A DNA stretch of 32,000 nucleotides from Microcystis aeruginosa NIES-843 (GCF_000010625.1 NC_010296.1:4710001-4742000), one strand, 5' to 3'; shown: positions 7,642 to 24,236, counted from the first letter of the stretch. The notes: a model not told the origin generated them from the sequence alone. Made by a program: numbers and translations.

Positions 7642-7662
7642 GTTGATTTCAATCTATATGCG

Positions 7663-7694
7663 ATCGGGTGGGTTAAGGCTCACCCGATTTTTTT
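7663..7694 (+). terminator. Rho-independent terminator downstream of ftsH
   Basis: The stem atcgggtg / cacccgat is followed by a T7 run. Confidence 0.65.
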
Positions 7695-7702
7695 ATCCTA
7701 GT

Positions 7703-7919
7703 TAGGGTTTGCTGAATAAATGTGAAATGTAGGCAAGGTAAGAGTTTTGTGGCTTTTTTCGCGAAACAGGTGCAAGATTTTGAGAGAATCGTCGTTCAAA
7801 ACCTTGCGTCTTCATCGGCCCGCGTCCTGTAGGGGCGAAGCATTCGGACAATCACCTATCGGTGAAACCGTAGATTTTCTAACCGAATGCTTCGCCCGTA
7901 CTTTTTGCCGCAAACCCTA
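7703..7919. mobile_element. MITE variant sharing the TAGGGTTTGCTGAATAAAT terminus, with a 15-bp perfect internal hairpin
   Basis: The left end is tagggtttgctgaataaatg and the right end is tttttgccgcaaacccta, the same right end as 27311-27328. The internal arms are gggcgaagcattcgg (7833-7847) and ccgaatgcttcgccc (7883-7897). Confidence 0.7.
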
Positions 7920-8010
7920 GTTAAGGGTTCAAAAGCTGCAAAAATAAGGATTAAATTGCCTAAAATCTGTAAATAGACCATTTAATTGATTATTATTCTC
8001 ATTCTTAATT

Positions 8011-8052
8011 CTCCTGACTACTGACTACTGGCTACTGACTCCTAACCCTAAC
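8011..8052. repeat. Tandem heptamer repeat CTGACTA / CTAACC units
   Basis: Reads ctcctgactactgactactggctactgactcctaaccctaac and lies directly downstream of the lipoprotein gene. Confidence 0.6.
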
Positions 8053-8074
8053 AATAATTTTTTGATTTTTACAA

Positions 8075-8290
8075 TTAGTCGTCATCGTCATCGTCATCGT
8101 CTTTATTCTGGTCATTATCACCGTCTTTTTGCTGCTTTTCTCCGTCTTTATCGCTATCTTCGTCTTTTTGCGGCGATTCCACCGTGGTAGGGACGTTTTT
8201 CGGTTCTTCGGCTTCTTTTCCTCCCTGACAAGCACCTAAAACCGTAGTCAAGGTTAACAGAATCAGCAAAACTAAGGATTTCATTTTCAT
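8075..8290 (-). CDS. Small secreted acidic lipoprotein with poly-Asp C-terminus
   Basis: The ATG at 8290 has a GGAGA 8 nt upstream; the track start at 8305 is GTG. The signal peptide plus lipobox reads LLTLTTVLGAC. The mature part is Glu/Asp/Lys-rich and ends in DDDDDDDD, encoded by a GAC/GAT triplet repeat. Confidence 0.7.
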   Translation of the reverse strand: MKMKSLVLLILLTLTTVLGACQGGKEAEEPKNVPTTVESPQKDEDSDKDGEKQQKDGDNDQNKDDDDDDDD

Positions 8291-8327
8291 GGTCTTTCTC
8301 CCCACTCGATCGATAAATATAACAATT

Positions 8328-9293
8328 TTAAGACTTTTGGGCGGTGGATAGCTTGGCTAATGCCAAGAAAGTGCATTCCCAGACTAAACGGGGTTGAACG
8401 TAGGCTAACAGCTGCCGGCGGGTTTTTTCCAAGATTTCTAAAATCGATCGCTCTCGTCGTCGTTGCCAATCCTCATACTGAAGATAACTCACATACCATA
8501 ATTGGGTTTCCGTGTCAAGAGTTTGAGCAATAATTTTGGCTAATTCCAGTGCTTGGGAGAGTTTTAGGGGAAATTTGCTCAAAGATCGCGGTAAATCTTG
8601 GGGGAGACTGTCGAGAAATTCTAAAGCGGCGATCGCTTCTCCGGGGCTACCTTGGGCTAAACCGAGAATTGCCGGATAATTGAGAACGCGAGCGTGTCCG
8701 TTAGAGCGCAAGACTTGAGCGAGATTTTCTTCCGAAAGACGCTGAAAAGGGATATGTTGACAGCGAGAAACGAGAGTGGGTAGTAAAGAGGAAGGACTGG
8801 GAGCAATCAGGATTAAAGTGGCTTTTCCCGGTTCCTCAAGCGTTTTTAAGAGGGCATTTGCTGCTGATTCCGTCATGGTGTCTGCTTGCTCGATCACTAC
8901 CACAGAGCGGGACGATTCCAGGGGAGGACGACTTAAAAAGTTAGTAATCTCGCGAATTTGCTCGATGCGGATTTGCGGGGGGGCTTTACGCTTGAGATTG
9001 CTTTCCTGTGCTTCTTTTGCGGTGAGCAGTTTGCCTTGGTGTTGATAAGTGGGTTCAATCCAGAGTAAATCGGGATGATTGCCCCCGAGAAAGCGTTTCA
9101 GGATTAATTCCCTTGTTTCCGGAGATCGATCTCTAGTTAACAAGTCTTGACAGAAACATTTTGCTGCTAGATTGCGTCCAATCCCCTTAGCGCCGGCGAA
9201 TAAGTAAGCGGGAGCGATCGAATTGATTTCAAGCGCTCTTTGTAGTAGTTCAATGGCCTGATTTTGACCGATTAACCGTGACCAATCTATCAT
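8328..9293 (-). CDS. holB: DNA polymerase III subunit delta prime
   Basis: The N-terminus MIDWSRLIGQNQAIELLQRAL...APAYLFAGAKGIGR is an AAA+ clamp-loader P-loop variant, followed by VVIEQADTM and SRCQ (sensor). The internal ATG at 9293 is preferred over the track start at 9350. Confidence 0.85.
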   Translation of the reverse strand: MIDWSRLIGQNQAIELLQRALEINSIAPAYLFAGAKGIGRNLAAKCFCQDLLTRDRSPETRELILKRFLGGNHPDLLWIEPTYQHQGKLLTAKEAQESNLKRKAPPQIRIEQIREITNFLSRPPLESSRSVVVIEQADTMTESAANALLKTLEEPGKATLILIAPSPSSLLPTLVSRCQHIPFQRLSEENLAQVLRSNGHARVLNYPAILGLAQGSPGEAIAALEFLDSLPQDLPRSLSKFPLKLSQALELAKIIAQTLDTETQLWYVSYLQYEDWQRRRERSILEILEKTRRQLLAYVQPRLVWECTFLALAKLSTAQKS

Positions 9294-9305
9294 CTTTTCC
9301 CTGCC

Positions 9306-9647
9306 ATGGCTCGCTATTCCTGTTCTTATTTTGTCGGAATTTCTCCCCATCAGACCGGGCTTTTATACGATGATATCCTAAGTTTGGGTGAATTTGAAAT
9401 CATCAAGCGCCGGCCCGATGTGTTACTTTTATCGGAGGTTCCTAACGATGCGCTCTTTCCCCAGTTAGTGAAAGTGGAATTATTTATTCATCCTCCCACT
9501 AGCTCGGAACTTCAGATCGATTTATTGGTAAAAAATCATGAATTGCCCCTGAGAACTAATAATCGTTGTCGGCAATTTTTCCAATCTATTCACCAGATTA
9601 TTACCAAAAATTATCAAGGCCAATCCCTGACCAGAATTACTGCTTAA
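9306..9647 (+). CDS. Hypothetical protein, divergent from holB
   Basis: 113-aa ORF with no motif I recognise. Its codon usage and GC look like the neighbouring core genes. Confidence 0.45.
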   Translation: MARYSCSYFVGISPHQTGLLYDDILSLGEFEIIKRRPDVLLLSEVPNDALFPQLVKVELFIHPPTSSELQIDLLVKNHELPLRTNNRCRQFFQSIHQIITKNYQGQSLTRITA

Positions 9648-9846
9648 CCCGATTTGTTCCTGTCTCCGTCAACTGACAAAGACGGGGACAAAATACCATC
9701 TTGGCTCTCTTGGGTAACGAACCACAAAGACACAGAGGACACAGAGATTGATCGCTCCTGTATCAGTGAAACTTATCACACAAAGAATAAGAGAGCCGCT
9801 CTTTTTGGTGCTTGATAGATTTATCGAGAAAAAATCGGTAATTGCT

Positions 9847-12177
9847 TTAGTTTTTGCCTTCCTGCGTCGATTTGAGCGGAGGAAATTGACGACGTAAAAG
9901 CAGGGAATTACTCACTACCATAACCGAACTAAAAGCCATTAAAGCTGCTGCTAAGGCCGGACTGAAAGCTAGACCCCAACGGGGCAGTAATAAACCACCG
10001 GCAATGGGAATAGCAAAGGTATTATAACCCAAAGCCCAAAAAAGATTTTGTCGGATTTTTTGCCATGTGGCCAGACTTAAATGCAGAGATTGCACCACAT
10101 CCTCCAGGCGATCGCTAATTAAAACGATCCCAGCCGTTTCCATGGCCACTTCTGTGCCACCGGCCAGAGCAATACCGATGTTAGCCTGTCCTAGTGCGGG
10201 AGCATCATTGATACCATCCCCGACCATAGCCACGATTTTGCCCTCTTTTGTCTGTAGGTCGGCAATTAAGGCGGATTTTTCGGTGGGGGCAACTTCGGCA
10301 TAAAATTGGCTAATACCCAAACTATTAGCGATCGCTGTCACCACTTCTTGGCGATCACCACTGAGTAAAATCACCTCTAAACCGAGTTTTTGCAACTGAT
10401 TCACGGTTGTTTGAGCATCGGGACGTAATCGATCCTGAAAAGCGATCGCACCGAGTAATTGTTCTTCCATCCCCAGATAAATCACCGTTTTACCCGCTTG
10501 TAAAAGCTCTTGAATCCCCCAGATAGTTTCATCGATTTTAATGCCGTTTTGCGCCAACCATTGCCGATTTCCCAGAACAATTTTCGACCCCTGCACCCTT
10601 GCCGAAACTCCCAATCCGGCGACAGTTTGAAAATCTTCCCCCGTCAGGTTAGTAGGGGGAGTAACCGCGTCTAAAATCGCCCGAGCGAGGGGATGATTAG
10701 TACCACTCTCCACTACTGCCGCTAATTGTTGAATTTCCAGGGAATTAAGGATAGAAAAACTCAAACAATCGGTAATTTCTGGATGACCTTGGCTGAGGGT
10801 TCCCGTTTTGTCAAAAACCACCGTTTGCAGTTGCGAGACGGTTTCCAAAACATCGCCCCCTTTAATTAAAATACCCCGTTCGGCTGCTAAACTGGTTCCC
10901 ACCAGTAGGGCCGTCGGTGTGGCTAAACCGAGAGCGCAGGGACAAGCGACCACAAGCACGGAAATCGCTAATTTTAGGGACAAAAGTAGGGGAGAAGTGG
11001 GTTGAATCATCTCGTGGTGTCCTGTGGTTGACCCTAACACCTCTGGAAAGAGCCTAGTTCCCCAAAAATACCAAAAGAGCAGCACAATTAGGGCAATTAT
11101 CATGACTCCGTAGGCAAAATAACCCGCTACCCGGTCCGCTATCTTCTGTACCGGGGCCTTGCGAGTTTGGGCTGATTCCACGGCTGCGATAATCTTAGCT
11201 AGGGTGGTATCGGTCCCCACCTGACGAGTTTGCACAGCGATCGCACCAGAGAGATTAAAACTGCCAGCAATGACTAGATCTCCCATTTCCTTGACCACCG
11301 GCAGCGATTCCCCCGTTAACAAAGCTTCATCTACCGTGGTTCTTCCCTGAATAATCTCCCCATCCACGGGAATTTTTTCCCCGGGTAAGACGCGCACCCA
11401 TTCCCCGACGCGCAGCTGTTCCACCGGAATCGCCACACCCACACGGTCATCTGTACTACCAATCAGGTGAGCCACTGCCGGTTGTAGGGAAGTAAGCGCT
11501 TCTAAGTCTGCGGCTGCGCGATGACGGGAATGCGCTTCTAGAGTCCGTCCGAGGAGAATAAAACCTAACAGCATGACTGGTTCATCAAAAAAGCACTCTA
11601 GACCGAGATTAGGGAAGATAAGAGCCAAACAACTGGCTATATAGGCGCTACCTGTGCCTAAACTAACGAGAGTGTTCATATTTGGCATCCCGTGCCGTAA
11701 TCCCCGCCAACCATCGATGAAAATATCGCGGCCGGGGAATAAAATGGCTAGGGTGGCTAAAATCCAGTGAAAAGCAATACTTTGAAAGATGGGGATTTCT
11801 GGTCCCCCGATGTGGTGTAAGTGACCAATCAGGGAAAAAACCAGTAAACAACAAGCGATCGCTAATCGGTATAATTGTTGTTGCCGTTCTTTTTGTTGGT
11901 TTTGCAGCCGTTGATTTTGTTGAGAAAGGGGAGTCGATGAGCTGCGCGGTTGGGTGGGGAATCCGATTGCGGTTAATTTTGCGGCTAATTGCTCTGGTGC
12001 GATCGCATCTGGTTGGTATTCAATCACGGCAATTTCCGTGATTAGATTAACTTGGGCCGATTTTACCCCTTGATTTTGGCTGAGTTGTCGTTCCACGGCA
12101 CTCACACAGCCAGCGCATTTCATGCCTTTTACGTCTAGAGTAGCGGTTTTTAGTCCAGTTTCGGCGGCTAGGATCAT
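9847..12177 (-). CDS. Copper-translocating P1B-type ATPase (CtaA/PacS class)
   Basis: The N-terminal HMA domain has GMKCAGC. Other motifs are TM CPC (ACPCALGLATP), phosphorylation site DKTGTL and hinge GDGINDAP. The ATG at 12177 (MILAAETG...) is preferred over the TTG at 12192. Confidence 0.9.
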   Translation of the reverse strand: MILAAETGLKTATLDVKGMKCAGCVSAVERQLSQNQGVKSAQVNLITEIAVIEYQPDAIAPEQLAAKLTAIGFPTQPRSSSTPLSQQNQRLQNQQKERQQQLYRLAIACCLLVFSLIGHLHHIGGPEIPIFQSIAFHWILATLAILFPGRDIFIDGWRGLRHGMPNMNTLVSLGTGSAYIASCLALIFPNLGLECFFDEPVMLLGFILLGRTLEAHSRHRAAADLEALTSLQPAVAHLIGSTDDRVGVAIPVEQLRVGEWVRVLPGEKIPVDGEIIQGRTTVDEALLTGESLPVVKEMGDLVIAGSFNLSGAIAVQTRQVGTDTTLAKIIAAVESAQTRKAPVQKIADRVAGYFAYGVMIIALIVLLFWYFWGTRLFPEVLGSTTGHHEMIQPTSPLLLSLKLAISVLVVACPCALGLATPTALLVGTSLAAERGILIKGGDVLETVSQLQTVVFDKTGTLSQGHPEITDCLSFSILNSLEIQQLAAVVESGTNHPLARAILDAVTPPTNLTGEDFQTVAGLGVSARVQGSKIVLGNRQWLAQNGIKIDETIWGIQELLQAGKTVIYLGMEEQLLGAIAFQDRLRPDAQTTVNQLQKLGLEVILLSGDRQEVVTAIANSLGISQFYAEVAPTEKSALIADLQTKEGKIVAMVGDGINDAPALGQANIGIALAGGTEVAMETAGIVLISDRLEDVVQSLHLSLATWQKIRQNLFWALGYNTFAIPIAGGLLLPRWGLAFSPALAAALMAFSSVMVVSNSLLLRRQFPPLKSTQEGKN

Positions 12178-12284
12178 AGAAAAAGTAGGCAAGGATGGTC
12201 TTTACTTCTATCCTAGAAATTCTCGACGGATTTTTAAACTATTTTGGCCTGTAGGGTTACAGATAGATGAAATTTCATTACAGA

Positions 12285-12375
12285 TAAGCTAAACGGCTTT
12301 TACTTCGGATCACCGATATAGACTCCAAAAGGGTTATAGCTGTTGGATCATGCAGGTTAAGCGCCGTTTAGCTTA
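12285..12375. mobile_element. 91-bp MITE-like element with 13-bp perfect TIR TAAGCTAAACGGC/GCCGTTTAGCTTA
   Basis: The inverted repeats lie at 12285-12297 and 12363-12375. The TAAGCT terminus is shared with the IS630-family element at 24237-25470. Confidence 0.55.
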
Positions 12376-12401
12376 GCTGAAATTTTAGGTAGCCGATCTG
12401 G

Positions 12402-12760
12402 TAGTGGACTGACACAGCTAAAATAGGGCAATAGATAGGCTCAACTGAGGACATCAATCATGGGAAGATGTAGGCGAGATAAAGTTCATCTGACAGTCGC
12501 ACAACGAGAAAACTTGGGAGCATCTCACCTTTGCAATGAGCATAAATACTTAGTGGAAAAATAGGCTTTTCGAGGGTAATTCTTGTTTTAATTCTCCATG
12601 TACGCAGTCTTTAAAAGCCTCTATTTCGTTCCAAGACACGATTAAGAGTGGCTTTTAGGCTAAGTATAATTACTTATCGCGTAAGTGAGATGCTCCCGAA
12701 AACTTTGAACAAATCAGTGGGGAAGGGTTCATCACAGAGTACGCTAATCGGCATAACACG
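12402..12760 (+). pseudogene. Remnant of the IS630-family left end and transposase N-terminus, interrupted by a MITE and abutting the group II intron
   Basis: gtagtggactgacacagctaaaatagggcaatag...atgggaagatgtaggcgagataaag is clearly homologous to 16797-16925. It encodes MGRCRRDKVHLTVAQRENLEQIS versus MGRGRRDKVNLTGEQRENLEQIS there. Confidence 0.75.
12516..12697. mobile_element. 182-bp MITE with 13-bp perfect TIR (GGGAGCATCTCAC/GTGAGATGCTCCC) and 8-bp target duplication GAAAACTT
   Basis: The TIRs lie at 12516-12528 and 12685-12697. GAAAACTT occurs at 12508-12515 and 12698-12705. Removing the insert plus one duplicate restores colinearity with 16905-16925. Confidence 0.8.
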
Positions 12761-12803
12761 ATTAGGGGTCGAGAAGGTCGTCACCGACCTCCCCTCCCAT
12801 TCA

Positions 12804-12837
12804 GAACCGTGCATGAGACTTTCACCTCACACGGCTC
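12804..12837 (-). ncRNA. Group II intron domain V
   Basis: The minus strand reads GAGCCGTGTGAGGTGAAAGTCTCATGCACGGTTC. This is the 34-nt DV consensus shape (AGC triad, GAAA tetraloop), immediately after the IEP stop codon. Confidence 0.85.
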
Positions 12838-14679
12838 CTAGCTTGATTGTTCCCTTGTTAAGGATACAGCTTGACTTCTTTTGGTTGACCTTGTGTTATC
12901 CTGTTTAACAGATGATGTCAAACTAGATGATTCTAGGCTTCCATCGGTTGCCGATTTATCATCGTGACAGTGGCGGTGTAGTAATTGAAGGTTTTTATAT
13001 TCATCCTTTCCGCCTAGGCTTAACGGGAGAATGTGGTCAACTTCAATTAAATCCGATGGGGTGAAGTATTGTCCACATCGGCTACACTTGCCTTGTTGCT
13101 TTTTGAGTAGTTTGGCTACTCTTGTCGGTGTGTCGATTGCTTGTCCTCGTCTGGTCGCCCAGTAAGTCCAATTTCCGTCATAAGGTGAGGCGTCGGCGCG
13201 TACTAGGGTATGTCTGACAATTGGTGTCCAATTATGTTTCCATAATTGATGACCGTCTTTGGTCTTAAATAACCAAGATTCGTGTCTTTCTTTCCCATTG
13301 CTGAGTTTAACTGTATCCGGTCTAAAATAATTTCTCAGCTTTTCGTAGTTCGCTTTACCGCATCTTGATACTGTCCATGCCCTTAACATTAACCAGGTTG
13401 TATTGTCTAGTTTATTGAAGGTATCCATAGATACTACTCCTGAGTAGTAGTTAGCCCAACCTCTAATGATTGGGTTTAGTCGACTAATCAGGGCTGATTG
13501 AGGTGCTGTTTTGTGTTTTTTGATTACACCTTTAATCGCTTCTGTGTGGGTTTTAACTGCTTTTTGGCTGGGTTTGATGTGGGTTTTGTGACCAATTAAT
13601 CGTTTTGCCCCATCTTTCCCAGATTTGTATTTTCCTACTGGATATTGCCTGATATTGAATCCTAGAAAGTCAAAACCGGGTTCTTCCATTTTCCCATTGT
13701 ATTCAATAGGTTTGAGTGTGTGACACACTCTGGTTTTTTCTGGTTTAAGTTCTAATCCAATAGGCTTTAACCATTCAGAAATGGCAGTTTTGCACTGTTC
13801 AATGATTTCGAGTGATGGTGAAATCACCACAAAATCATCGGCGTACCTTATTAAAACAGCTTGATTTTTACCATTTCCCTTTTTGGGAAATAGTGTTTCA
13901 ATTAATCTTGCCATTCCATCCAGTGCGATGTTGGCTAGTAGTGGACTTATTACCCCTCCTTGTGGTGTCCCTGTTTCTGTTTCTTCAAATACACCGTTAT
14001 CCAAAACTCCTGCTTTGAGCCATTGTTTGATGTCTCTTTTCAGGGAGCTTGGACAATGAATTTTGGACAGTAAAAAGTCGTGATTAATTCGGTCAAAACA
14101 CTTGGCAATATCAGCATCTAATACAAAGTAGCTACTTTGATTAATGGTGATGTATATCCTTGATATAGCGTCATGGTCAGACCTTCCGGGTCGGAAACCA
14201 TAGCTGGTTCCTTCCATTTTTGACTCCCATTCTGGTTCAAGTGCCGATTTAATCAACGCTTGTCTAGCTCTGTCTTTGATGGTTGGTATTCCTAATGGGC
14301 GTTTTTCATCCCTGCCGGGTTTAGGAATCCATACCCTTCTTAGCGGTTTTGCTTTAAGTGTTCCTTTGATTTCTTCGGTTAGATTTAGCCTTTGTTCTGG
14401 GGATATTGCTATCATTCCATCGACTCCTGCTGTTTTCTTTCCTTGATTATCTTGGGTTACTTTGCGAACTGCTAATAAACGAGCATAGTATGATTTCACC
14501 AATAGACGTTGCAACCTTCTAACCTTTGCATCCTGTCCCGATTTAGCCGCTTGGTATATTCTCTTTTGGAGCTTGAAAACATATCTTTGGACTTTTGCCC
14601 AATTGATAGTTTTCCATACATTCGTAGTCTTAGTGGTTTTCGGTTTCCCGAATCCTTTACCTTCTCTCGATTTCGTCAT
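12838..14679 (-). CDS. Group II intron-encoded protein (reverse transcriptase / maturase / HNH endonuclease)
   Basis: 613 aa. RT blocks are RVWIPKPG...RPLGIPTIKDR, TPQGGVISPLLANI and YADDFVV. The maturase X motif is RGWANYY. The C-terminal HNH reads CSRCG...EVDHILPLSLGG...NLQLLHRHCH. Confidence 0.92.
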   Translation of the reverse strand: MTKSREGKGFGKPKTTKTTNVWKTINWAKVQRYVFKLQKRIYQAAKSGQDAKVRRLQRLLVKSYYARLLAVRKVTQDNQGKKTAGVDGMIAISPEQRLNLTEEIKGTLKAKPLRRVWIPKPGRDEKRPLGIPTIKDRARQALIKSALEPEWESKMEGTSYGFRPGRSDHDAISRIYITINQSSYFVLDADIAKCFDRINHDFLLSKIHCPSSLKRDIKQWLKAGVLDNGVFEETETGTPQGGVISPLLANIALDGMARLIETLFPKKGNGKNQAVLIRYADDFVVISPSLEIIEQCKTAISEWLKPIGLELKPEKTRVCHTLKPIEYNGKMEEPGFDFLGFNIRQYPVGKYKSGKDGAKRLIGHKTHIKPSQKAVKTHTEAIKGVIKKHKTAPQSALISRLNPIIRGWANYYSGVVSMDTFNKLDNTTWLMLRAWTVSRCGKANYEKLRNYFRPDTVKLSNGKERHESWLFKTKDGHQLWKHNWTPIVRHTLVRADASPYDGNWTYWATRRGQAIDTPTRVAKLLKKQQGKCSRCGQYFTPSDLIEVDHILPLSLGGKDEYKNLQLLHRHCHDDKSATDGSLESSSLTSSVKQDNTRSTKRSQAVSLTREQSS

Positions 14680-15373
14680 ATAGACTCCTACTAGACTCTA
14701 TCCTTACAATCAAACCGTAACCCGTCAGCATATCCTGATTATTACTGTCAGGCGTTGGCTTTTGGTTACATCTCACACCCTTGAAGGCTTGCGTTTACAC
14801 TTATCACTACTGAGTATTTCGACCGATACTCAGAGCCTAAAAGGGCTTATAACGTTCCGTTTATGTGGGCATTCCATCTTTAGATTTGTCCTCTCCACCG
14901 GGGTATTTTAAAGGTCTGTGTAAGTGATGATATGAGTACCTTACTGTTTCCCCTTGTTCTTTTGAACGCAGTGTGTCAACCTATTTCACTACTGCAATAT
15001 TTACGATGGTTCAAGTCGGACATTCGGTTCACACCTAATCATGGATGGTTGGCAGTGGTCTCGGTTTGGATGTTAGGTTACATCTAGGAGCCTTCCGTTC
15101 CCCGCTTCAGTCCCAGAGTTGTGATTTCTGAATCTGGGGGTGGCTATCGCCGTTACTCTCACCTTTGTAGCGATTGTAAATAATTGTTACAAAGTGTTTT
15201 GACCTTGAGTCCCCTTGCCTAGTTTGGTATCTGACGATACTAAACGTCGGGACATATAAACAGTTATAAGGTTGGTCTGGGTTGACCTCTTAGATTCAGT
15301 CGGGGGACTGAAGACCTTACTAGGCGGTTATTTCGGGCATTTCAGCCCTATTTCATGCCTAAACGTTTCGCAC

Positions 15374-15500
15374 CTTATCGTAATATTATACGGAAAACTT
15401 CTTGCGATCGCTCCATTTGAGCGTAATATACGGAAAGATTCTTAAAAAAATGCGTATTTAGCGTCACATACGGAAACTTTCCGTATATTATATAGTCGGG
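15374..15500 (+). repeat. Module A: ~130-bp repeat with three ATACGGAAA boxes at 40-bp phasing plus an inverted fourth box
   Basis: The boxes lie at 15388-15396, 15428-15436 and 15468-15476. The palindrome atacggaaa-c-tttccgtat spans 15468-15486. Together with 12753-12760 it is paralogous to 18897-19032, roughly four-fifths identical by manual alignment. Confidence 0.85.
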
Positions 15501-15572
15501 CTGCTTTAGGTTTTGGTAACGGCAGCATATTTAGCTTAGTCAAATTAAAAAGAATGAAGACATTAGTGGAAT

Positions 15573-16658
15573 ATGAAAATTTACGCTATATCACTCGTAG
15601 GTAATGTCTATTGGAGGATTCACCCCAATGATCCATTAATACTAAATCTTAAGTCCTTGCCTGGATGGTTTTTTATCAATCCCTTAACCTACTCAGAAGT
15701 AGAATTAGCCTCTAAAAGTTTTAGTTTCAAAAAGGTTGGAGTTGTTAATGGCACGATCATTGTTTTGACAGGAGGTTTTATATTAGGAACCTCGCTTGGG
15801 GAGTTTGACCCTACTTCTATTCCATTTCCTATAGAAGAAGAAGAGGCAAAGATTTTTCGGATTGATTCAGGAGGAAAAGTAAGTTCTGACTATAACCCAC
15901 TTCCCACTTATGTAGAACGCTTCTCTTCAAGCCTGCGTCAAATGAGTAAGCAGGTTACAATCCCTAAAAGTTTTTCCTGTATTTCCGAACGTGAACTCCT
16001 TGAGCTACCTGAATTAAATTTTACGGCTGCCAAAAAAACAGTGTTGGGTATACAAAGATACATAGTAGACACGGCGGTTACATGGGAAAATTTAAAGGAT
16101 GCAGATTTAGATTTTTTGGCTTCAAAGAGCTTTGTATATGAAAGACTGTTACTCGACTCAATCCATGCTTACAAAGACAAAGATTATAGAAGATCTCTGC
16201 TGTATACAGCTATTTCTGTCGAAACATTAGCTGCGACAAAATCAGATGAAGCATATGAACTTATTACTCAAAATGGAGATGCTGATAATGTTTTAAGATT
16301 AGTTCCTTTTTCTCAAAAAGGAGGAACTTTAATTACTAAAGATCCTGTTTATGAATTGCTACGTAGTAGAAGCAAGTTTCTAGAGCTTCTTCATGAGATA
16401 CCCTTATATATTTTTGGAAAATCTTTACTGGTTGATAATGAGGCTTTATACCAAAAAGCTACCAGGCTTTATAAAACTCGAAACAAGATAGCGCATTTAG
16501 GCCAACCTCATGCTGGAAATCAAACAACATTTGCACTGACCGAAGAAGATGCTTTAGAGGCTATAGAATGTGCAATGAATATCTTTCAATGGTTTGAGGT
16601 ATCAACACATTTTCCTATTCCTAAGTTATCCTTCATTAAAGGAGATTCACCTTCATAA
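15573..16658 (+). CDS. Hypothetical protein with a C-terminal HEPN-like domain (RNxxxH motif), candidate RNase/abortive-infection-type effector
   Basis: 361 aa and AT-rich. The C-terminal helical region has YKTRNKIAHLG (R303...H308, nt 16479-16496), flanked by the helices DYRRSLLYTAISVETLAA and ALEAIECAMNIFQWF. I did not recognise the N-terminal ~190 aa. Confidence 0.55.
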   Translation: MKIYAISLVGNVYWRIHPNDPLILNLKSLPGWFFINPLTYSEVELASKSFSFKKVGVVNGTIIVLTGGFILGTSLGEFDPTSIPFPIEEEEAKIFRIDSGGKVSSDYNPLPTYVERFSSSLRQMSKQVTIPKSFSCISERELLELPELNFTAAKKTVLGIQRYIVDTAVTWENLKDADLDFLASKSFVYERLLLDSIHAYKDKDYRRSLLYTAISVETLAATKSDEAYELITQNGDADNVLRLVPFSQKGGTLITKDPVYELLRSRSKFLELLHEIPLYIFGKSLLVDNEALYQKATRLYKTRNKIAHLGQPHAGNQTTFALTEEDALEAIECAMNIFQWFEVSTHFPIPKLSFIKGDSPS

Positions 16659-16672
16659 TTTATAAAGTTTTA

Positions 16673-16717
16673 GTGCGATCGCCGATCTCGTAGGGTGCGT
16701 TAACGAAGTGAACGCAC
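16673..16717 (+). repeat. Hairpin repeat (a): GTGCGATCGCCGATCTnGTAGGGTGCGTTAA...AACGCAC
   Basis: It is nearly identical to 22203-22249 and 22609-22655. The stem is gtgcgtt/aacgcac. It lies 14 nt after the HEPN-like gene stop. Confidence 0.8.
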
Positions 16718-16796
16718 TAATTCCCTCGCAAACCCTCAAAATAAAGCTCAAATGCGATAGAATGAGGGACAAATAAAATTCAGTCAAGAGATATTG

Positions 16797-17533
16797 TAGT
16801 GGACTGTTTCAGCTAAAATAGGGCAATAGCTCGAACAAGCAGAGGACATCAATCATGGGAAGAGGTCGGCGAGATAAAGTCAATCTAACAGGGGAACAAA
16901 GAGAAAACCTCGAACAAATCAGTCGTAATGGCTATGCACCAGCTAAAAAAATTCTCCACGCTCGGATTTTGCTGATGTGTGACGAGGGAGAACAGGCGAA
17001 AAGGAAATGGACAGATGAAGAAATAGGCGAAGCTTTAGAAGTTCATAGAAATACAGTGGGACGTATTCGTCAAAGATTTCTTCAAAAAGGCGAAAAACCA
17101 GCATTAGAACGGAAATCGAGAAAAACTCCCCCCACTCCGGCAAAAGTTGATGGAGCCGCCGCCGCCCAAATCATTGCCCTGTGCTGTTCGGAGCCACCAT
17201 CTGGCCGAGCCGAGTGGACAATCCGACTATTAACCTCGGAACTCAAACAAAGACAAATTATCACCGAGATTTCCAGTCCAACGGTGTGGCGTACTCTAAA
17301 AAAAACCAATTACGCCCTTGGAAAACCCAAAGATACTGTATTCCGGAACAGGATTTAGCCCGATTTGTTGCCCAGATGGAAGTTGTCCTTGACCTGTATG
17401 GCACTCAGCCATCGGAAGAAGAACCGTTAATCGCGATGGATGAAGCATCAAAGCAACTACTTGGAGAAGTTTACCCTCCGATACCCATGCAACCTGGACA
17501 AGATAAAAAAGAAGACTATCACTATAGTGATAG
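16797..17533 (+). mobile_element. IS630-family element, left part only (right part displaced or lost at the IS701-family insertion)
   Basis: The left end is ta-gtggactgtttcagctaaaatagggcaatagc. The transposase coding sequence runs from 16855 and stops being recognisable at 17534. Confidence 0.75.
16855..17533 (+). pseudogene. IS630-family transposase: HTH part in frame 0, DDE part in frame -1 across an A8 run, then truncated
   Basis: The ORF 16855-17358 is an HTH/Paired-like N-terminus. The frame starting at the A-run 17298-17305 reads KKNQLRPWKTQRYCIPEQD..., the canonical IS630 linker. It ends at 17533 before the DDE triad is complete. Confidence 0.75.
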
Positions 17534-18896
17534 TGGGACTTAAACAAATTTCAAGCCCAAACAAAGCCTAAACTGGCTTTGTAAGCGGCAAACACATCCC
17601 GATTCTCGGTCAGCCACTCAAAGAAACGGAAAGACATCGCTGTCCGAAAAGCTTCCAAGGCTTCCACAAAAGTGTTTAAAGGTCGATTCGCCCACTGCCT
17701 TTGCAATCCCCCAGTTAACTTATGCCACAGGATAAATGTATAGGCACAAAACACCAGGATAAAATGACGAAGTAAGCTTCGTTTATCCCTGACTTGGTAT
17801 TCCCTTAACCCTAACCATCCTTTGGCTTCTCGGTAGAATACTTCCACCCAATTTCTTTCGGTGTAAGTCTTGACTATCCACGACGCTGTTACTGTATCTG
17901 CCTCAACTACATTGGTGATGAAATAGTCCACCTCTGTGGCTTTTTCCATTGAACTTGCATTCATGACGATCGCCAAGTTCCTTTCTCCTTCTAGTTGAGA
18001 TATTTTCGCTCTGAATACCGCTACCCAAACCGTTTTTTCTTTATCTAGATTTAGGGTGATTTTCTCCCAATCCTTTTCTGATAGGCTTTTTGCTAGTTGC
18101 TCAAGCTGGATTGTTTCTTCCACACCCCCTTCTTTTTCAATAATTACTTTTCGATTTTTTGCCAATCCTCCTAAGTATTTTAGCTTTCTTTCTTCCAGGG
18201 CTTTGAGAAAATTTGTGTTGTTGCCATAACCAGCATCTATTAAGACGATTTTCGGTCGATAGCCTCTGGTTAAGCTCCGGTCAATTAAATCTATCGCTAT
18301 CTCCGGTTTCTTCTTAAATTCTTTGTCTTCTTTCCCCTCGGCTAAGGAACTAGCCGGTTGATAAATTTCAATGTCTAGGGGGACACTTTTTTTGCCGTCG
18401 TAGAGATGGGTAGTGACGGCGACTATTCCGTTGTCTGTCTTGCCAATTTCTCCTAGGTACTGCCTGCCAACTCCGGCGGTCAGATTGCCACTTTTTCGAT
18501 GTCCTGAGTCATCGACAATCAGGGAAAATCCTCGGGGGATTTGCGTCTGGCGGCATTGGTTCATCACTTGCAACCGACATTCATTCACCTGACGGTCTGA
18601 CCAGGGAGATTCGGTCAAAAAGTGATGTAATCGGTTATAAACTACTCCGACGGCATTATTGGCCATTTGAGTGAGGTTTTTCCGCTCACTTTCCCCTAAT
18701 AATCCTCCTAAATATTGTCTGAAGCCGTTTTTTTGCGCTTCGTTTTTGAAGCAATTGTCAAACCGCCGACACCATCGGTCAAAGCATGGGGGCATCGCGG
18801 CTGGGGTTGTCTCTTTCATCGCTGCTCTTTCAACGTAAAGTGCTTACTCTTTAACGATTATACTCGATTTGATCTTTATTTGGCGTTTAAGTCCCA
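17534..18896 (-). mobile_element. IS701-family insertion sequence (1363 bp)
   Basis: The 12-bp perfect terminal inverted repeats are tgggacttaaac (17534-17545) and gtttaagtccca (18885-18896). They enclose a single 422-aa transposase ORF. Confidence 0.8.
17551..18819 (-). CDS. IS701-family DDE transposase
   Basis: 422 aa. The N-terminal LHHFLTESPWSD motif is typical of IS701-type transposases. Acidic residues sit in LIVDDSGHRKSG, VLIDAGYGNN and YTERNWVEVFYREAKGWLGL. Confidence 0.85.
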   Translation of the reverse strand: MKETTPAAMPPCFDRWCRRFDNCFKNEAQKNGFRQYLGGLLGESERKNLTQMANNAVGVVYNRLHHFLTESPWSDRQVNECRLQVMNQCRQTQIPRGFSLIVDDSGHRKSGNLTAGVGRQYLGEIGKTDNGIVAVTTHLYDGKKSVPLDIEIYQPASSLAEGKEDKEFKKKPEIAIDLIDRSLTRGYRPKIVLIDAGYGNNTNFLKALEERKLKYLGGLAKNRKVIIEKEGGVEETIQLEQLAKSLSEKDWEKITLNLDKEKTVWVAVFRAKISQLEGERNLAIVMNASSMEKATEVDYFITNVVEADTVTASWIVKTYTERNWVEVFYREAKGWLGLREYQVRDKRSLLRHFILVFCAYTFILWHKLTGGLQRQWANRPLNTFVEALEAFRTAMSFRFFEWLTENRDVFAAYKASLGFVWA

Positions 18897-19032
18897 ATAA
18901 CACGCTTATTGTAATGTTATACGGAAAACTTCTTACGATCACTCGAATTTGGAATGATATATGGAAAGATTCTTTAAAAAATGCATATTTGGCGTGATAT
19001 ACGGAAAATTTCCGCATAATATATAGTTAGGC
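18897..19032 (+). repeat. Module B: second copy of the ATACGGAAA-box module (unoccupied intron site)
   Basis: The boxes lie at 18919-18927, 18959-18967 (atatggaaa variant) and 18999-19007. The inverted box lies at 19009-19017. The phasing is again exactly 40 bp. ataacacg|cttattg at 18897-18911 equals the exon junction of the intron at 12761-15373. Confidence 0.85.
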
Positions 19033-19174
19033 GAAGCCAATGATTCGCAAAGGAGGTGGTCACTATGATTTTGCTCTAATGCCAGAGATGAATCACAACT
19101 CATCAGGATTGACCGAACGTTTTTTGTCCGAGTCCATCCAATGATCATCAGTCAAGTCAAAAGGAGAGAAAACA

Positions 19175-20503
19175 ATGGCAAAGCAAAGTTTCGACCTTGC
19201 TAAGTTACGACTCGGCATCTATCAGGATCGCATTTTTCTAGGGGTGCCACTCCAGGAACTGCTGGTGGCTGTTGAAATCACAGCGATTTGCCACTACCCC
19301 ACGTTCACGATCAATCTGGATGCTGGTTCAGATATCGCCTATCACTTCGATGCGCGTTCCTCTGAAGGGCGAATTGTGCAAAATACCTGTGTTGCTGGAG
19401 CTTGGGGTGCAGGGGGAGAAATTTTGTCCATGCCCCCTGAGTTCGTCTCTTCTCAGCCCTTTACCCTCAAGATTGCGGTTGAGCAAGAGTTGGTAGTTTA
19501 CCTCAATGGCCGGGTGCTAACTCGGTATGCCCACTGCCTGCCTCTGACTCAAATCAATACCGTTCATATTGTTTATCCGCCTGAAAATTTGCAGGTGCAG
19601 TCAGTGCAGGTATTTGAGCAGACTGCACCTGCCATAGAGCAACCCCCATTACCACCGCAGGAGATAACCGATATGCCAGCGTTTCTGGAAAATTTGCCGC
19701 CTCAGTTTGAGCCGCTGCGATTGTTTCTGGAAGCCAACTTAGTGCCTTACATCAAATTCACGGCGACAGACGCGGGACATCTCAATTCTGCGAGCTTCCG
19801 TGGCCCCGCCGACTGGAGTGGCGATCCGTTAGAACTTTGGCAAAGTAAAATTGGCGGTCATCCTTACCTACCGAAAGGCACGAGCTATCCTACCGATGCC
19901 GAAACGGGTGAGATGATGATGTTTCTCATGCAGATCAACTGCGCCGATCTGCCGGTAATCGAAAGTCTTAACTTGCCACGACAGGGGCTTTTGCAATTTT
20001 ACATCGGTTTAGATGTCCCCATGTGCACGCTGAGTCCTGAACAACACCGCGTTCTGTATTACCCCGACGTTTCTAAAGATAAAAATGACTTAATCACTGA
20101 CTTTAGCTTTTTAGCAGAACCTGCTAGCTCTCTGGAATGGTACGACGATGTTTATGCCTTAAATTTTTCTGTGCAGCGGGACGTGTTCTGGAATGCTCGT
20201 CGGCAACTGGATGAATCGTTTGAGATGCCCGAAGCGTTGACGGAACTGGGGGAAGACTTTACTGAATGGATTTCAGACTATGAGGACGAGTGTACGCTGA
20301 GGCATGGGCGGATCAATAAACTGGGTGGATATCCAGAACTTCACTCCTATGTGGATGAAACCATAGAGGGATTTAGAGGACGCTTATTGCTAGAACTTCA
20401 ACATCCTTTTGATATCGATAATAACTTTTACTTTTTTATCGAAGACTTGGATTTGGCAAACCTGAACCTTAGCAACGTTGAATCCTATTTCGTTAGCGTT
20501 TAA
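19175..20503 (+). CDS. Two-domain protein: N-terminal galectin-like beta-sandwich plus C-terminal DUF1963 (YwqG-like)
   Basis: 442 aa, with a GGAG 8 nt upstream of the ATG. The N-terminal AYHFDARSSEGRIVQNTCVAGAWGAGGEI...FTLKIAVEQELVVYLNGRVLTRYAH follows the galectin CRD pattern (H.N.R / V.N / W..E). The C-terminal KIGGHPYLPKG...MMFLMQINCADLP...GLLQFYI...NKLGGYPE follows DUF1963. Confidence 0.6.
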   Translation: MAKQSFDLAKLRLGIYQDRIFLGVPLQELLVAVEITAICHYPTFTINLDAGSDIAYHFDARSSEGRIVQNTCVAGAWGAGGEILSMPPEFVSSQPFTLKIAVEQELVVYLNGRVLTRYAHCLPLTQINTVHIVYPPENLQVQSVQVFEQTAPAIEQPPLPPQEITDMPAFLENLPPQFEPLRLFLEANLVPYIKFTATDAGHLNSASFRGPADWSGDPLELWQSKIGGHPYLPKGTSYPTDAETGEMMMFLMQINCADLPVIESLNLPRQGLLQFYIGLDVPMCTLSPEQHRVLYYPDVSKDKNDLITDFSFLAEPASSLEWYDDVYALNFSVQRDVFWNARRQLDESFEMPEALTELGEDFTEWISDYEDECTLRHGRINKLGGYPELHSYVDETIEGFRGRLLLELQHPFDIDNNFYFFIEDLDLANLNLSNVESYFVSV

Positions 20504-20531
20504 TGGTGTAGTCAGTCGATGGAATCAAGCG

Positions 20532-21047
20532 ATGCTAAGTTATCTATATCTTATACTCGTGGTTACACCGCTGATTGCATCTGGAGTGATCGCGTTTCTG
20601 TTCAGTCAATCTCTCATGTCGCTGTTGATGGTATTGGTGGGAGCGATCACTGGAACGATCAGCATTGTGCCGTTTGGGATTTTCTGGTTACAGCTTTTTC
20701 ACCGTGACTGGATGGAATCACAAGCCGCAGGATTTATCTTTGTTCCTGTAATTTTGCCATTCTATGGTTATATCGGTGCGGTTGCTGGAGCGAGTCTGTT
20801 TGCTATTCTGTGCGGTTACGACAGGAACGATTTACCAGTAGTTGTATTTCAGGCGATCGCAATCTGTTGCACTGTGATGTTGGGGGGATTCATTCCGGCT
20901 GCGATCTTTGCCATTCCATCTTTTGTGACATCAGCCCCTGAAGTGAACACGGAAGTAGAAAGAGTTGCGGTTGTACTTATTTTTGCGATATGTGTTGGGC
21001 TATACTTTGCACGGCTACAACTTGCATTTTTTCCTCAAGGACAATAA
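20532..21047 (+). CDS. Multi-pass membrane protein (about 5 TM), hypothetical
   Basis: The track ORF starts at a TTG at 20478 that overlaps the upstream gene. The first ATG is at 20532 (MLSYLYLILVV...). The protein is hydrophobic throughout. Its stop codon abuts the IS630-family left end. Confidence 0.55.
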   Translation: MLSYLYLILVVTPLIASGVIAFLFSQSLMSLLMVLVGAITGTISIVPFGIFWLQLFHRDWMESQAAGFIFVPVILPFYGYIGAVAGASLFAILCGYDRNDLPVVVFQAIAICCTVMLGGFIPAAIFAIPSFVTSAPEVNTEVERVAVVLIFAICVGLYFARLQLAFFPQGQ

Positions 21048-22202: not shown

Positions 22203-22249
22203 GTGCGATCGCCGATCTGGTAGGGTGCGTTAATGGAATGTAACGCACC
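22203..22249 (+). repeat. Hairpin repeat (b)
   Basis: Reads gtgcgatcgccgatctggtagggtgcgttaatggaatgtaacgcacc with the 9-bp stem ggtgcgtta/taacgcacc. Confidence 0.8.
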
Positions 22250-22311
22250 TCATTTTTATCCTGTGATGATAGAGTTGAGTTGTACTGATAGTGATAGTTG
22301 TCTAGTTCCAA

Positions 22312-22629
22312 ATGCCATTACCTCAAGTGGTTATTGATACCAACGTCATTGTTGCTGGGTTGAGGTCTAGGCGAGGTAGTGCATTTCAATTGCTCACGCT
22401 CATCGATACAGGGCAGTTTGATATACATTTGTCAGTGCCTCTGGTACTCGAATATACAGAAGTTTTACTGCGGGAATTGCCAAACCTTTGCCTGAGTCGT
22501 GAAGAGGTTGACGACCTAATTGATTTCTACTGTGCAGTAGGCGTACAGCATGAAATTTTCTTTCTTTGGCGACCATTCCTGCGCGACCCCAAAGATGAAA
22601 TGGTATTAGTGCGATCGCCGATCTTGTAG
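22312..22629 (+). pseudogene. PIN-domain toxin (VapC-like), C-terminally truncated by hairpin repeat (c)
   Basis: The N-terminus VVIDTNVIVAG... has the first PIN Asp, followed by LEYTEVL and DPKDEMVL. From 22609 the frame reads into the repeat (RSPIL*), so the last helix and last acidic residue are missing. No antitoxin ORF lies upstream. Confidence 0.65.
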
Positions 22630-22655
22630 GGTGCGTTAATGCAATGTAACGCACC
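22609..22655 (+). repeat. Hairpin repeat (c)
   Basis: Reads gtgcgatcgccgatcttgtagggtgcgttaatgcaatgtaacgcacc. An inverted degenerate copy follows at 22674-22706. Confidence 0.8.
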
Positions 22656-22721
22656 TTATCTAATGTTCAAAATCCGTGCGTTATGCTGACGCTAACACAC
22701 CCTACTGGACTGTTTCAGCCC

Positions 22722-22778
22722 TAGGGTGCGTTCCCTAATGCGGGATTTTTGAGAACGCACCATGCACATTGATTGAAG
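22722..22778 (+). repeat. 57-bp direct repeat, copy 1 (GGTGCGTTC...GAACGCACC hairpin plus ATGCACATTGATTGAAG)
   Basis: Near-identical to 24151-24208 with about 3 mismatches. It is preceded at 22707-22720 by a 15-nt scrap of the IS630-family left end (tggactgtttcagcc). Confidence 0.8.
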
Positions 22779-22890
22779 CTGTGAGGTTAGGTGCGGTGCT
22801 GCTCTTGTGGGACCAGTTGAGGAATGTTAGCGAAGATTGCCAATGTTTAGGTTAAAATAGAGGGGCAAAAGTTGCCACAGGGTCGCTTCA

Positions 22891-23166
22891 ATGACAGTTC
22901 GACAACCCCGCTACAGCAAAGAAGAATTTGCCCGACGTGGACACGAAGTCTATGAATCTCAGGTACGCTCCCAAATCGAGGAAGGGAATCATGGGAAGAT
23001 TGTAGCAATAGACATCGAAACAGGGGCTTTTGAAGTGGCTGACGACAGCCTAACAGCTGCTAAACAACTGTTAATACGTTTTCCTGATGCACAAATATTT
23101 GGTATTCGCATTGGACATCGTGCCGTCCATCGTTTTGGCTTTCGTTCCCCCAGTGTATCGCCATGA
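22891..23166 (+). CDS. Small conserved hypothetical protein, upstream partner of the retropepsin-like protease
   Basis: 91 aa. RYSKEEFARRG.EVYE...GKIVAIDIETGAFEV is a pattern I recall from cyanobacterial paralogues. Its stop overlaps the next start (ATGA at 23163-23166). Confidence 0.65.
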   Translation: MTVRQPRYSKEEFARRGHEVYESQVRSQIEEGNHGKIVAIDIETGAFEVADDSLTAAKQLLIRFPDAQIFGIRIGHRAVHRFGFRSPSVSP

Positions 23167-23534
23167 TGATGGGGAGCGTCAATTCGCGCCGAGAAGCAAT
23201 TATTCAATTCGTAGTGCTAGGCGAAAATCACCAGAGGCAAGCGATTAAAGCAGTTATTGACACTGGTTACACTGGATTTCTCACGTTGCCTTCTGCTATC
23301 ATTACAACACTAGGATTAACGTGGTATATGCAAGAAGAGGGAATCTTGGGCGATGGAAGCCTCTGTATGTTTAACGTATTTGAGGCAACTGTGATCTGGG
23401 ATGGTCAGATCAAATCTATTGAAATCAATGAGTCAGAGACAGATCCATTAGTTGGTATGGGTTTACTTGATGGCTATGAGTTGAATATTCAGGGTTTTGC
23501 TGGGGGATTAGTGACAATTAAACCTTTGTCATAG
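23163..23534 (+). CDS. Clan AA (retropepsin-like) aspartic protease
   Basis: 123 aa. The active-site motif is VIDTGYTGFLTLP (DTG), followed by LLGMG-type GMGLL near the C-terminus. The size fits a single-lobe protease that dimerises. Confidence 0.75.
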   Translation: MMMGSVNSRREAIIQFVVLGENHQRQAIKAVIDTGYTGFLTLPSAIITTLGLTWYMQEEGILGDGSLCMFNVFEATVIWDGQIKSIEINESETDPLVGMGLLDGYELNIQGFAGGLVTIKPLS

Positions 23535-23925
23535 TCTCTAGTTAGAAAAATGTCTAACAAATCACTGCACCCGACCTATGATTAGACTATTTATACCAAA
23601 TTTCTAAATTCCTGACAGTGCGATGCCGAAGGCACTGCCTAGCAGTGCGTTAATGAAATGTAAAGGATCTTTTTCTGTGGCATGATCAGTTCGACAACCG
23701 ACAATCTATAATCATTTCAGATAAGTCTGATACACTCTAGACCAGTTAAACTCTTATGGACTCTGGCATTGATATTCTCAATCTTAATTGAAATGACTAT
23801 ACGAATTGCAGTGCAGACAATACCTTACTCGAAAAACCCTGCGCTACTATTAGAATTAGATGCGATCATTTTGAGAGCGACTGAGCCACCCTATAATGTT
23901 CAAATTCATGCTGGAGTCCTAACCC

Positions 23926-24132
23926 ATGCGAGCGAAACTTTCAGAGCAAATCTCGTCCACTGATGCAGAAATTATTTTAAGACGCTTACCAGACTGGATT
24001 CAGGATGCTTTGATTGCTCGCGCTACTGAAATTGATTATCCCGTTGAAGCGATTCTTGAGATGGCGATCGCCAGTTTTTTAGACACAGAGGCATTAAGTT
24101 TTGCCGACTGTAAGCCAGGGCGAGGTCGATAA
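23926..24132 (+). CDS. Small hypothetical protein (68 aa)
   Basis: LPDWIQDALIARATEIDYPVEAILEMAIASFLDTEALSFADCKP resembles small proteins I recall as widespread in cyanobacteria. Function is unknown and there is no clear SD. Confidence 0.45.
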   Translation: MRAKLSEQISSTDAEIILRRLPDWIQDALIARATEIDYPVEAILEMAIASFLDTEALSFADCKPGRGR

Positions 24133-24150
24133 GTGGGATGGCTACCGCTG

Positions 24151-24208
24151 TAGGGTGCGTTCCCTAATGCAGGATTTTTGGGGAACGCACCATGCACATT
24201 GATTGAAG
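24151..24208 (+). repeat. 57-bp direct repeat, copy 2
   Basis: Reads tagggtgcgttccctaatgcaggatttttggggaacgcaccatgcacattgattgaag; compare 22722-22778. Confidence 0.8.
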
Positions 24209-24236
24209 TCGTTAGACCGCTTCAATTTTAGGGTAA

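Follow-up and report, generated by a model that had tools for sequence, protein, structure and literature searches.

Two related modules with phased palindromes in Microcystis aeruginosa NIES-843 as probable attI regions of a chromosomal integron

Two modules with phased boxes

The window analysed here is a 32,000-nt stretch of the Microcystis aeruginosa NIES-843 genome (NC_010296.1:4710001-4742000) that carries, 3.5 kb apart, two copies (A and B) of a module with regularly spaced 9-bp boxes, each very probably the attI region of a chromosomal integron. The two copies form a direct repeat (15374-15501 and 18905-19032) of 83% identity by repeat finder, with the same picture from MAFFT; blastn extends the similarity of copy B to 18897-19027 once the group II intron that interrupts copy A is deleted. 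A previous analysis of this DNA (the sequence-only reading) had described direct-orientation paralogues about four-fifths identical, with boxes at offsets 0, +40 and +80 in each, and both descriptions are borne out. The box ATAYGGAAA occurs exactly at 15388, 15428 and 15468 on the plus strand and at 15478-15486 on the minus strand in copy A, and at 18919, 18959 and 18999 in copy B, so the spacing is 40/40 bp exactly in both copies. None lies outside the two copies; seven were found in the window against 0.97 expected, and 0 of 100 shuffles gave seven. The argument from exact same-face phasing is weak, since 40 bp is ~3.8 helical turns and the period across the wider family ranges over 38-42 bp.

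Module A (15374-15495, plus strand) comprises boxes 1 and 2 (15388-15396 and 15428-15436) and a 19-bp palindrome, ATACGGAAAcTTTCCGTAT, formed by box 3 and the inverted box (15468-15486). This palindrome is perfect, and its counterpart in module B has one mismatch (18999-19017), in keeping with the near-perfect palindrome described earlier. Module B (18897-19026, plus strand) carries its second box, at 18959, as ATATGGAAA. Similarity between the copies stops at 15496 in A, which is also its limit against all relatives, and at 19027-19033 in B. Beyond these limits the sequence after B is unrelated to that after A, and the downstream open reading frames (ORFs) begin 105 bp (A) and 176 bp (B) after box 3, so the early end of similarity, the unrelated DNA and both distances were correctly given. 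The integron core site is GTTRRRY. In module A the corresponding heptamer, with its crossover G at 15495 on the plus strand, is GTCGGGC, six of the seven positions of the core; in module B it is GTTAGGC, with the crossover at G19026^TTAGGC on the plus strand (here and below a caret marks a junction). A candidate L box, GTATATT, lies at 15483-15489 on the plus strand of module A.

The left part of module A, which corresponds to the 5' leader of intI, the gene for the integron integrase, lies at 12733-12760 (plus strand) on the far side of the intron. The intron-deleted sequence is collinear with uninterrupted modules and aligns with them free of gaps, so the identification of 12753-12760 as a continuation of the module was right. 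Farther left of copy A are a 14-nt piece and then the left-end fragment of an IS630 element that a miniature inverted-repeat transposable element (MITE) interrupts. Left of copy B lies the end of a DDE_5-type insertion sequence (IS), which truncates an IS630 copy too. The partner gene of the module thus cannot be read from the window alone.

Relatives of the module and orphan units in Microcystis

An exact scan for the box-3 palindrome, ATACGGAAANTTTCCGYAT, across one genome per species returned at least 120 loci. Among the matches listed, 92 of 120 are cyanobacterial or Chloroflexi-like, bins that are clearly mis-assigned included, and the groups that bear the palindrome include Nostoc, Calothrix, Leptolyngbya, Phormidesmis, Tumidithrix, Microcystis, Snowella, Gloeobacterales and Anaerolineales. 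The other 28 listed loci lie in other phyla and resemble a chance background. In the cyanobacterial and Chloroflexi loci the palindrome is part of a longer conserved string, ATTATACGGAAAnTTTCCGTATAAT(A/C)nATAGTTRRRY, after which similarity between loci stops. By a strict test of the same listed matches, the tail AATnnATAG^TTRRRY is found at 78 of the 92 loci, most of the other 14 being variants of it, and at none of the 28 in other phyla. The family-wide consensus is ATTATACGGAAAnTTTCCGTATAATnnATAG^TTRRRY. A plasmid collection gave no match to the module, and five palindrome matches in viral contigs all lack the attI tail and look coding or chance. A second set of relatives, unbiased for box 3 and the tail, was collected by scanning metagenomes for the spacer pattern and contains 21 Microcystis-type modules.

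ORFs within 4 kb of oriented palindrome sites were clustered. A single family is linked to the module at a fixed position, a divergent ORF of ~320 amino acids (aa) immediately to its left; the next-largest cluster comprises six loci at scattered positions. This ORF is an integron integrase (IntI), with scores of 470, 429 and 469 bits against TIGR02249 (cut-off 265) and a full-length alignment to VchIntIA (PDB 2A3V, E = 8e-94). IntI or its fragments adjoin the palindrome in 24 genome loci by tblastn, fragments flank further metagenome copies, and the IntI proteins across the family have diverged to about 57% identity. Canonical attC sites (RYYYAAC...GTTRRRY type, 84-88 nt) lie downstream at four loci: two at L012 (GTCTAAC...GTTAGAC, 86 nt), two at L098, GCCTAAC...GTTAGAC at L089 and two at L094. 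Integrons have been recorded in both Cyanobacteria and Chloroflexi (PMC4889954; PMC8618304).

The divergent IntI on the left, the core G^TT at the end of similarity and the attC sites in relatives together identify the module as the intI-attI intergenic region. We therefore take each module, with a probability of about 0.85, to be the part of a chromosomal integron platform that adjoins intI, in a cyanobacterial and Chloroflexi clade; it comprises attI and also the leader and promoter region that separates intI from the first cassette. Crossover at G^TT, with variable inserted DNA, accounts for the stop in similarity past the palindrome and for the unrelated genes that follow each copy. The earlier proposal of a recombinase-type array at the conserved end of a cargo-delivering unit was essentially right, except that the unit, then called uncharacterised, would be a chromosomal integron attI. 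The alternative offered with it, a shared regulatory cassette, survives in part, as attI regions normally carry the promoters Pc and PintI.

The DNA to the right of the site varies at a fixed chromosomal position. The left flank of the window (6952-12515) is collinear with L027, L029 and L089, yet past ATAG^TT each of the four strains has a sequence of its own. The 21 metagenome modules have 19 distinct right flanks between them. Divergence sets in immediately past ATAGT, or its variants TTAGT and CTGGT, in 20 of them; the remaining one (L142) is decayed and without a core. The junction of module B recurs identically in metagenome locus L235. Copy B is 91% identical to the attI that adjoins the intact intI of a Snowella metagenome-assembled genome (L022), compared with 83% to copy A, which indicates that A and B come from different attI lineages or origins.

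Several observations weigh against this assignment. The core of copy A departs from GTTRRRY, and the palindrome of copy B has its mismatch. In the window, tblastn finds nothing of IntI beyond a 14-nt stub, so the copies may be inert relics, and a heuristic search returned no intact attC there, only implausible matches within genes. Homologous recombination between tandem attI units, rather than IntI activity, could lie behind the differences in first cassettes. Nearly every intI in Microcystis proper is degraded (forms observed: an allele of aa 1-113, the IS630 junction described below and one apparently frameshifted near-full copy), so that any recent exchange would have used IntI in trans; part of the diversity of right flanks may instead come from homologous recombination between repeated units.

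Both platforms in the window are orphan attI sites. At copy A an intI relic (12719-12732, minus strand) consists of the first 14 nt of the gene (ATGAACCCTTCCCC, M-N-P-S-P), the start codon and four further codons. It is identical to the start of the intact intI of L012, aligns also with that of L077, and is joined at 12718^12719 to position ~130 of the IS630 element; its leader is split by the intron. Copy B is cut by the DDE_5 IS. As no intI lies beside either copy, recombination at these sites would need IntI in trans. The same IS630/intI junction is present in L027, in L029, in three units of L089 and in 11 metagenome copies, with L226 and L233 among the loci that carry it. This marks it as a long-standing deletion allele, copied afterwards and often in tandem. 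Because the junction falls inside the IS630 ORF and at intI codon ~5, it is a deletion junction rather than the end of an element.

The tandem state is clearest in M. ichthyoblabe, where three successive units, each made up of a hairpin MITE, the IS630 fragment, the intI stub and attI, are each followed by different genes, with an intact attC between units 1 and 2. The units of L089 lie 1.0 and 2.0 kb apart, and L226, L233 and L012 carry two units each. Deletion derivatives in Nostocales retain only the last 26-74 codons of intI next to attI.

Orphan attI sites with a 55-70-nt 5' stub of intI also occur in Nostocales genomes that hold an intact integron elsewhere. Two pairs of loci were compared, L010 with L100 (Calothrix NIES-3974; 338 bp, 97.6%) and L118 with L080 (Goleter; 355 bp, 88.7%). 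A mobile intI-attI platform with a fixed left end was considered and rejected: in comparisons between genera the apparent boundary is the intI stop codon, and paralogues within a genome break at arbitrary points inside intI.

Chromosomal integrons of Xanthomonas with inactivated intI are an example of degenerate integrons, and CALINs are clusters of attC sites that lack an integrase. The Microcystis units resemble degenerate integrons and CALINs in their truncated, frameshifted or deleted intI, their IS-eroded array and their strain-variable cassettes at a fixed chromosomal site. They differ in that the attI module itself survives, repeated as tandem units of MITE, IS630 fragment, intI stub and attI with different DNA after each, and is not a cluster of attC sites alone. 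CALIN and In0 are defined in PMC4889954.

Phased palindromes, putative promoters and competing explanations

Upstream of the proximal palindrome we scored boxes that agree with ATACGGAAA or its complement at 8/9 positions or better, and found about 80 where roughly 2 are expected by estimate. Nearly all of them lie at fixed offsets. The common offsets are -40/-30 and -80/-70; in Nostocales they are -62 to -64, -111 to -113 and -152 to -154, and strays lie at -38, -41 and -89. The boxes are halves of degenerate 19-bp palindromes that recur every 38-42 bp in two to four units. The half that is kept differs by clade, the forward half in Microcystis and the reverse half in loci of the L059/L083 type, a pattern that speaks against a duplication that has simply decayed. 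Conservation of the units extends from Chloroflexi to Nostocales, over which range the spacers are not alignable, and among the matches listed the exact palindrome is essentially confined to attI regions.

The palindromes also coincide with promoter-like sequence. A rightward TATAAT just before the crossover is near-invariant in the family, whereas the leftward one is not; in most members TATAAT flanks the proximal palindrome on both strands. The hexamers resembling a -10 element in the window are TATATT and TATTAT in copy A and CATAAT in copy B. Scans of both modules for promoters and for terminators yielded no more than a single weak promoter match.

These features suggest a model for the site. 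At a tyrosine-recombinase site, the binding element that is cleaved must have a partner a few bp away. The right half of the proximal palindrome together with AAT reads GTATAAT, ends 5 nt before G^TT and is the only conserved sequence there; as it sits where the L box should be, we take it as the putative L box of the attI simple site. Some family members have a box that itself reads G(T/A)TATAC or GTATAAC, 6/7 of GTTRRRY or RYYYAAC, respectively. The upstream palindrome units would be accessory IntI-binding sites, like DR1 and DR2 of attI1, that assemble the attI x attC synapse. Because the palindromes overlap near-consensus -10 hexamers that face both ways, their occupancy should affect transcription toward both the cassettes and intI, and occupancy by IntI may gate the cassette and intI promoters. 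In its fullest form, which we put forward tentatively, the module would be an attI of new architecture in which two to four phased 19-bp palindromes serve as an array for IntI, or for IntI plus a partner, coupling recombination to divergent promoters. In Microcystis the intI-less units, multiplied in tandem, would still act as landing pads and promoters for cassettes through IntI supplied in trans, and may move like cassettes themselves (attI x attC or attI x attI).

Not all of the data favor this arrangement. The Microcystis box contains no GTT/AAC triplet, and G(T/A)TATAC is found in only part of the family. The better conservation of boxes than spacers, to which the sequence-only reading had tied its claim, holds across phyla; within Microcystaceae the whole module is conserved, and the boxes have only a slight edge (0.93 against 0.88 mean pairwise identity). 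The sigma-70 promoter scan is weak, with one 9/12 match in A and none in B. Finally, two 9-bp half-sites that are 1 bp apart (10 bp centre to centre) suit a small dimeric helix-turn-helix or ribbon-helix-helix protein better than they suit two tyrosine-recombinase clamps.

This last point leads to the strongest competing explanation, in which the region is attI but the palindromes are operators of a dedicated or host dimeric transcription factor that binds cooperatively to two to four phased palindromes and represses or activates the divergent promoters Pc and PintI, in the way that LexA and CRP act in other integrons. The geometry of the inverted half-sites fits an operator, as does their central base, which is variable (position +9, 0.2 bits). 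The proximal palindrome lies between a weak -35 and a -10 element, with TATAAT embedded on both sides, and in other integrons operators of this region are established regulators of PintI (PMC3108266; PMC8618304). However, clustering of ORFs within 4 kb revealed no second conserved gene that accompanies the platform, and the near confinement of the exact palindrome to attI in Cyanobacteria and Chloroflexi means that no wider regulon is visible. The site has been kept across two phyla while IntI itself has fallen to ~57% identity, which would require the same host factor in both phyla, and the boxes are retained in orphan units that have no intI to regulate. LexA in particular is not indicated: the cyanobacterial LexA box RGTACNNNDGTWCB, searched with at most one mismatch, is absent from both modules, and its five occurrences elsewhere in the window compare with 6.8 by chance. 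We consider this explanation less likely than not. Whether the boxes are predicted accessory IntI-binding sites or operators is, in our judgment, close to an even call, and an operator role does not exclude binding by IntI.

A quite different proposal is that the repeats act as single-stranded structure, with hairpins of ~40 nt (a box half, a spacer stem and the next half) forming in the intI mRNA leader or in single-stranded DNA, in the manner of a folded attC. The spacers often contain a short inverted repeat (ACCCC...GGGGT, CGCC...GGCG or CCTC...GAGG), T-G pairs outnumber A-C pairs, and the module folds better than its shuffles on both strands (z about -3). We nevertheless consider this improbable: both strands fold equally, as any DNA palindrome would, Watson-Crick pairs fill only about 37-63% of the spacer-stem cells with few true compensatory changes, the Microcystis spacers barely fold (-0.7 to -3.2 kcal/mol), no Rfam family corresponds to the module, and attI is recombined as duplex DNA in studied systems (PMC8946536).

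That the module is instead an IS or MITE relic, whether an IS630 interior or end or a multi-site transposon end of the Tn7 or Mu kind with mere neighbours downstream, is hardly credible: the region is dense in mobile elements (IS630 copies, a DDE_5 IS and MITEs), and box 1 with inverted box 3 resembles terminal inverted repeats (TIRs), but the module is similar to none of the IS630 copies in the window, its right boundary is the integron core site, and it lacks a transposase, TG/CA termini and a target duplication. A Tn7- or Mu-like end with multiple transposase-binding repeats was rejected on the grounds of gene content and boundary, the sole linked gene being intI and the boundary being GTTRRRY. 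Genome-wide matches always at a fixed distance inside an IS630-type element had been named as the observation that would sink the original claim, and in roughly half of the Microcystis copies one and the same 127-bp IS630 left-end fragment is indeed found about 35 bp away. The claim is not sunk by this, because the fragment is fused at intI codon ~5, inside the IS630 ORF, and intI occupies that place in other copies and genera; the IS630 junction is secondary.

To return to the attI assignment, comparison with characterised sites shows both what is familiar and what is unusual in the module. To our knowledge, characterised attI sites of different classes share only the core. Like attI1 of class 1 integrons, the module lies between a divergent intI and the first cassette, has its crossover at G^TT of GTTRRRY and carries several repeated sites upstream of the simple site. 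One of the attI1 repeats, DR2, is GATGTTATGG, and some members of the module family read the similar GATGTTATACGG. There is no sequence similarity to attI1 past the core. The repeats of the module are 19-bp imperfect palindromes with a period of ~40 bp, two to four units over 100-170 bp, whereas those of attI1 are 7-bp direct repeats at 19 and 32 bp within 65 bp. The module architecture is conserved across two phyla, and IntI binding, established for attI1, is only predicted for it. The attI1 sequence used for comparison was matched in at least 5000 plasmids. [quoted passage not shown]

The integron of Vibrio cholerae offers a second comparison. It too is chromosomal and sedentary, its intI is divergent, it carries numerous cassettes that are of toxin-antitoxin type or have no known function, and its integrase is the VchIntIA to which the IntI of this clade aligns over its full length. 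Its attIA, unlike the module, has no accessory repeats (PMC8946536), and it has one platform with an intact intI, whereas Microcystis has several platforms per genome, mostly without a working intI.

A literature search on the box sequence and on attI sites of Microcystis and other cyanobacterial integrons found no description of the site or of Microcystis integrons. Neither an attI whose phased palindromes are shared by two phyla nor orphan attI units multiplied in tandem seem to have been described before; the element itself belongs to a known kind, the integron. For most integrons the attI sequence is, by published account, not known, and IntegronFinder recognises exact class 1-3 sites only (PMC4889954), so that the consensus ending in ATAG^TTRRRY, together with ~40-bp phased units, is usable as a signature for the whole clade and finds platforms even after loss of intI. 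Conservation of the same array across two phyla also makes it a natural test case for the role of accessory attI repeats.

The intron, mobile elements and array remnants

A complete group II intron (12761-15373, minus strand) interrupts the left arm of attI A, in the same orientation as intI and 28 nt upstream of its ATG. The insertion point, ACACG^CTTATCG, is precise. Domain V/VI lies at 12761-12839 on the minus strand (Rfam RF00029, 59.7 bits), and an ORF at 12838-14679, also on the minus strand, encodes a reverse transcriptase-maturase with an HNH domain (Pfam RVT_1, RVT_N, GIIM and HNH). None of roughly 35 other Microcystis-type modules examined is interrupted by a group II intron. Class C-attC group II introns home into integron recombination sites, and the integron-associated introns known to us so far target attC, not attI. 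The intron in the window resembles them in that it sits where an integron recombines and lies on the strand that is transcribed along with the adjacent gene. In contrast to them, it occupies the attI left arm and intI leader rather than an attC and encodes an HNH endonuclease domain, which class C introns are not known to carry. Scans of the window found no tRNA, and by Rfam the group II intron only; a permissive Rfam scan of copy A gave sub-threshold noise.

The IS630 left-end fragment and its MITE span 12402-12718, with the 127-bp fragment interrupted by a 184-bp MITE at 12514-12697 whose inverted repeats are at 12516-12560 and 12653-12697. The DDE_5-type IS beside copy B (17535-18895, minus strand; Pfam DDE_5, 1.8e-43) has the TIRs gggacttaaac and gtttaagtccc and sits in the IS630 copy that it truncates (16793-17534). 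The 3' part of that IS630 copy and the DNA before attI B are gone, and there is no target duplication; the loss is probably an adjacent deletion.

Immediately 3' of the copy A crossover is a conserved 45-nt motif, GTYGGGCTGCTTnAG...GGTnAnGGCAG (15495-15537, plus strand). By nhmmer it directly follows attI in seven distant cyanobacteria, including L110, L040, L073, L036, L076 and L118, and it once follows an attC (L094, 5335-5379). The motif holds a small hairpin in which one stem position varies between C-G, A-T, T-A and G-T. Two readings suggest themselves, a recurrent cassette leader or the right arm native to an empty attI. On the second reading, copy A would be an empty site and the 361-aa ORF that follows (15573-16658, plus strand) no cassette; the ORF, for which Pfam, NCBIfam and PADLOC gave no match, is a flanking gene or else the first cassette. 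The DNA inserted at attI B (19027-21047, plus strand) contains a galectin/DUF1963 ORF (19175-20503; Pfam PF09234 and PF00337) and a 189-aa ORF (20478-21047). PADLOC and NCBIfam returned no matches for the ORFs downstream of the two copies, so that enrichment for defence functions is not demonstrable for those two ORFs.

Remnants of an eroded cassette array extend from 22786 to 24217 on the plus strand. They include an R''/L'' half of an attC (23552-23577) identical at 26/26 positions to the 5' half of an L012 attC, the R' cores GTTAGGT (22786) and GTTAGAC (24211), both recovered by core-motif search, and small paired ORFs (22891-23534). A PIN-domain toxin ORF (PIN_3; 22312-22629) lies just upstream of this range. 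These remnants and the two platforms make the stretch from 12.4 to 24.3 kb an eroded integron, with a Cu-ATPase gene on one side and, on the other, an IS630 copy that precedes housekeeping genes. The Microcystis "island" is thereby explained as an eroded chromosomal integron, and bloom-forming Microcystis carry several orphan attI sites with highly diverse genes after them.

Hairpins of the form GTAGGGTGCGTT...AACGCAC recur in the region, at 16689-16716, 22219-22250, 22625-22705, 22722-22760 and 24151-24190 of the window, at 2519-2703 of L012 and also in L089. They belong to a small element bounded by GTAGGGTG...CACCCTAC, which is often found within arrays and directly upstream of the IS630-fragment/attI units. 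They are not attC sites, as GTTA precedes TAAC, the reverse of the attC order. The possible pairing of module and hairpins raised earlier is seen in Microcystis only and reflects the MITE that precedes some units. Separately, the heptamer CCCCACA or GGGGTGT forms long runs at 3280-3345, 27146-27293 and 29748-29845, within repeats of ~100-170 bp, of which the window has three, one of them inverted.

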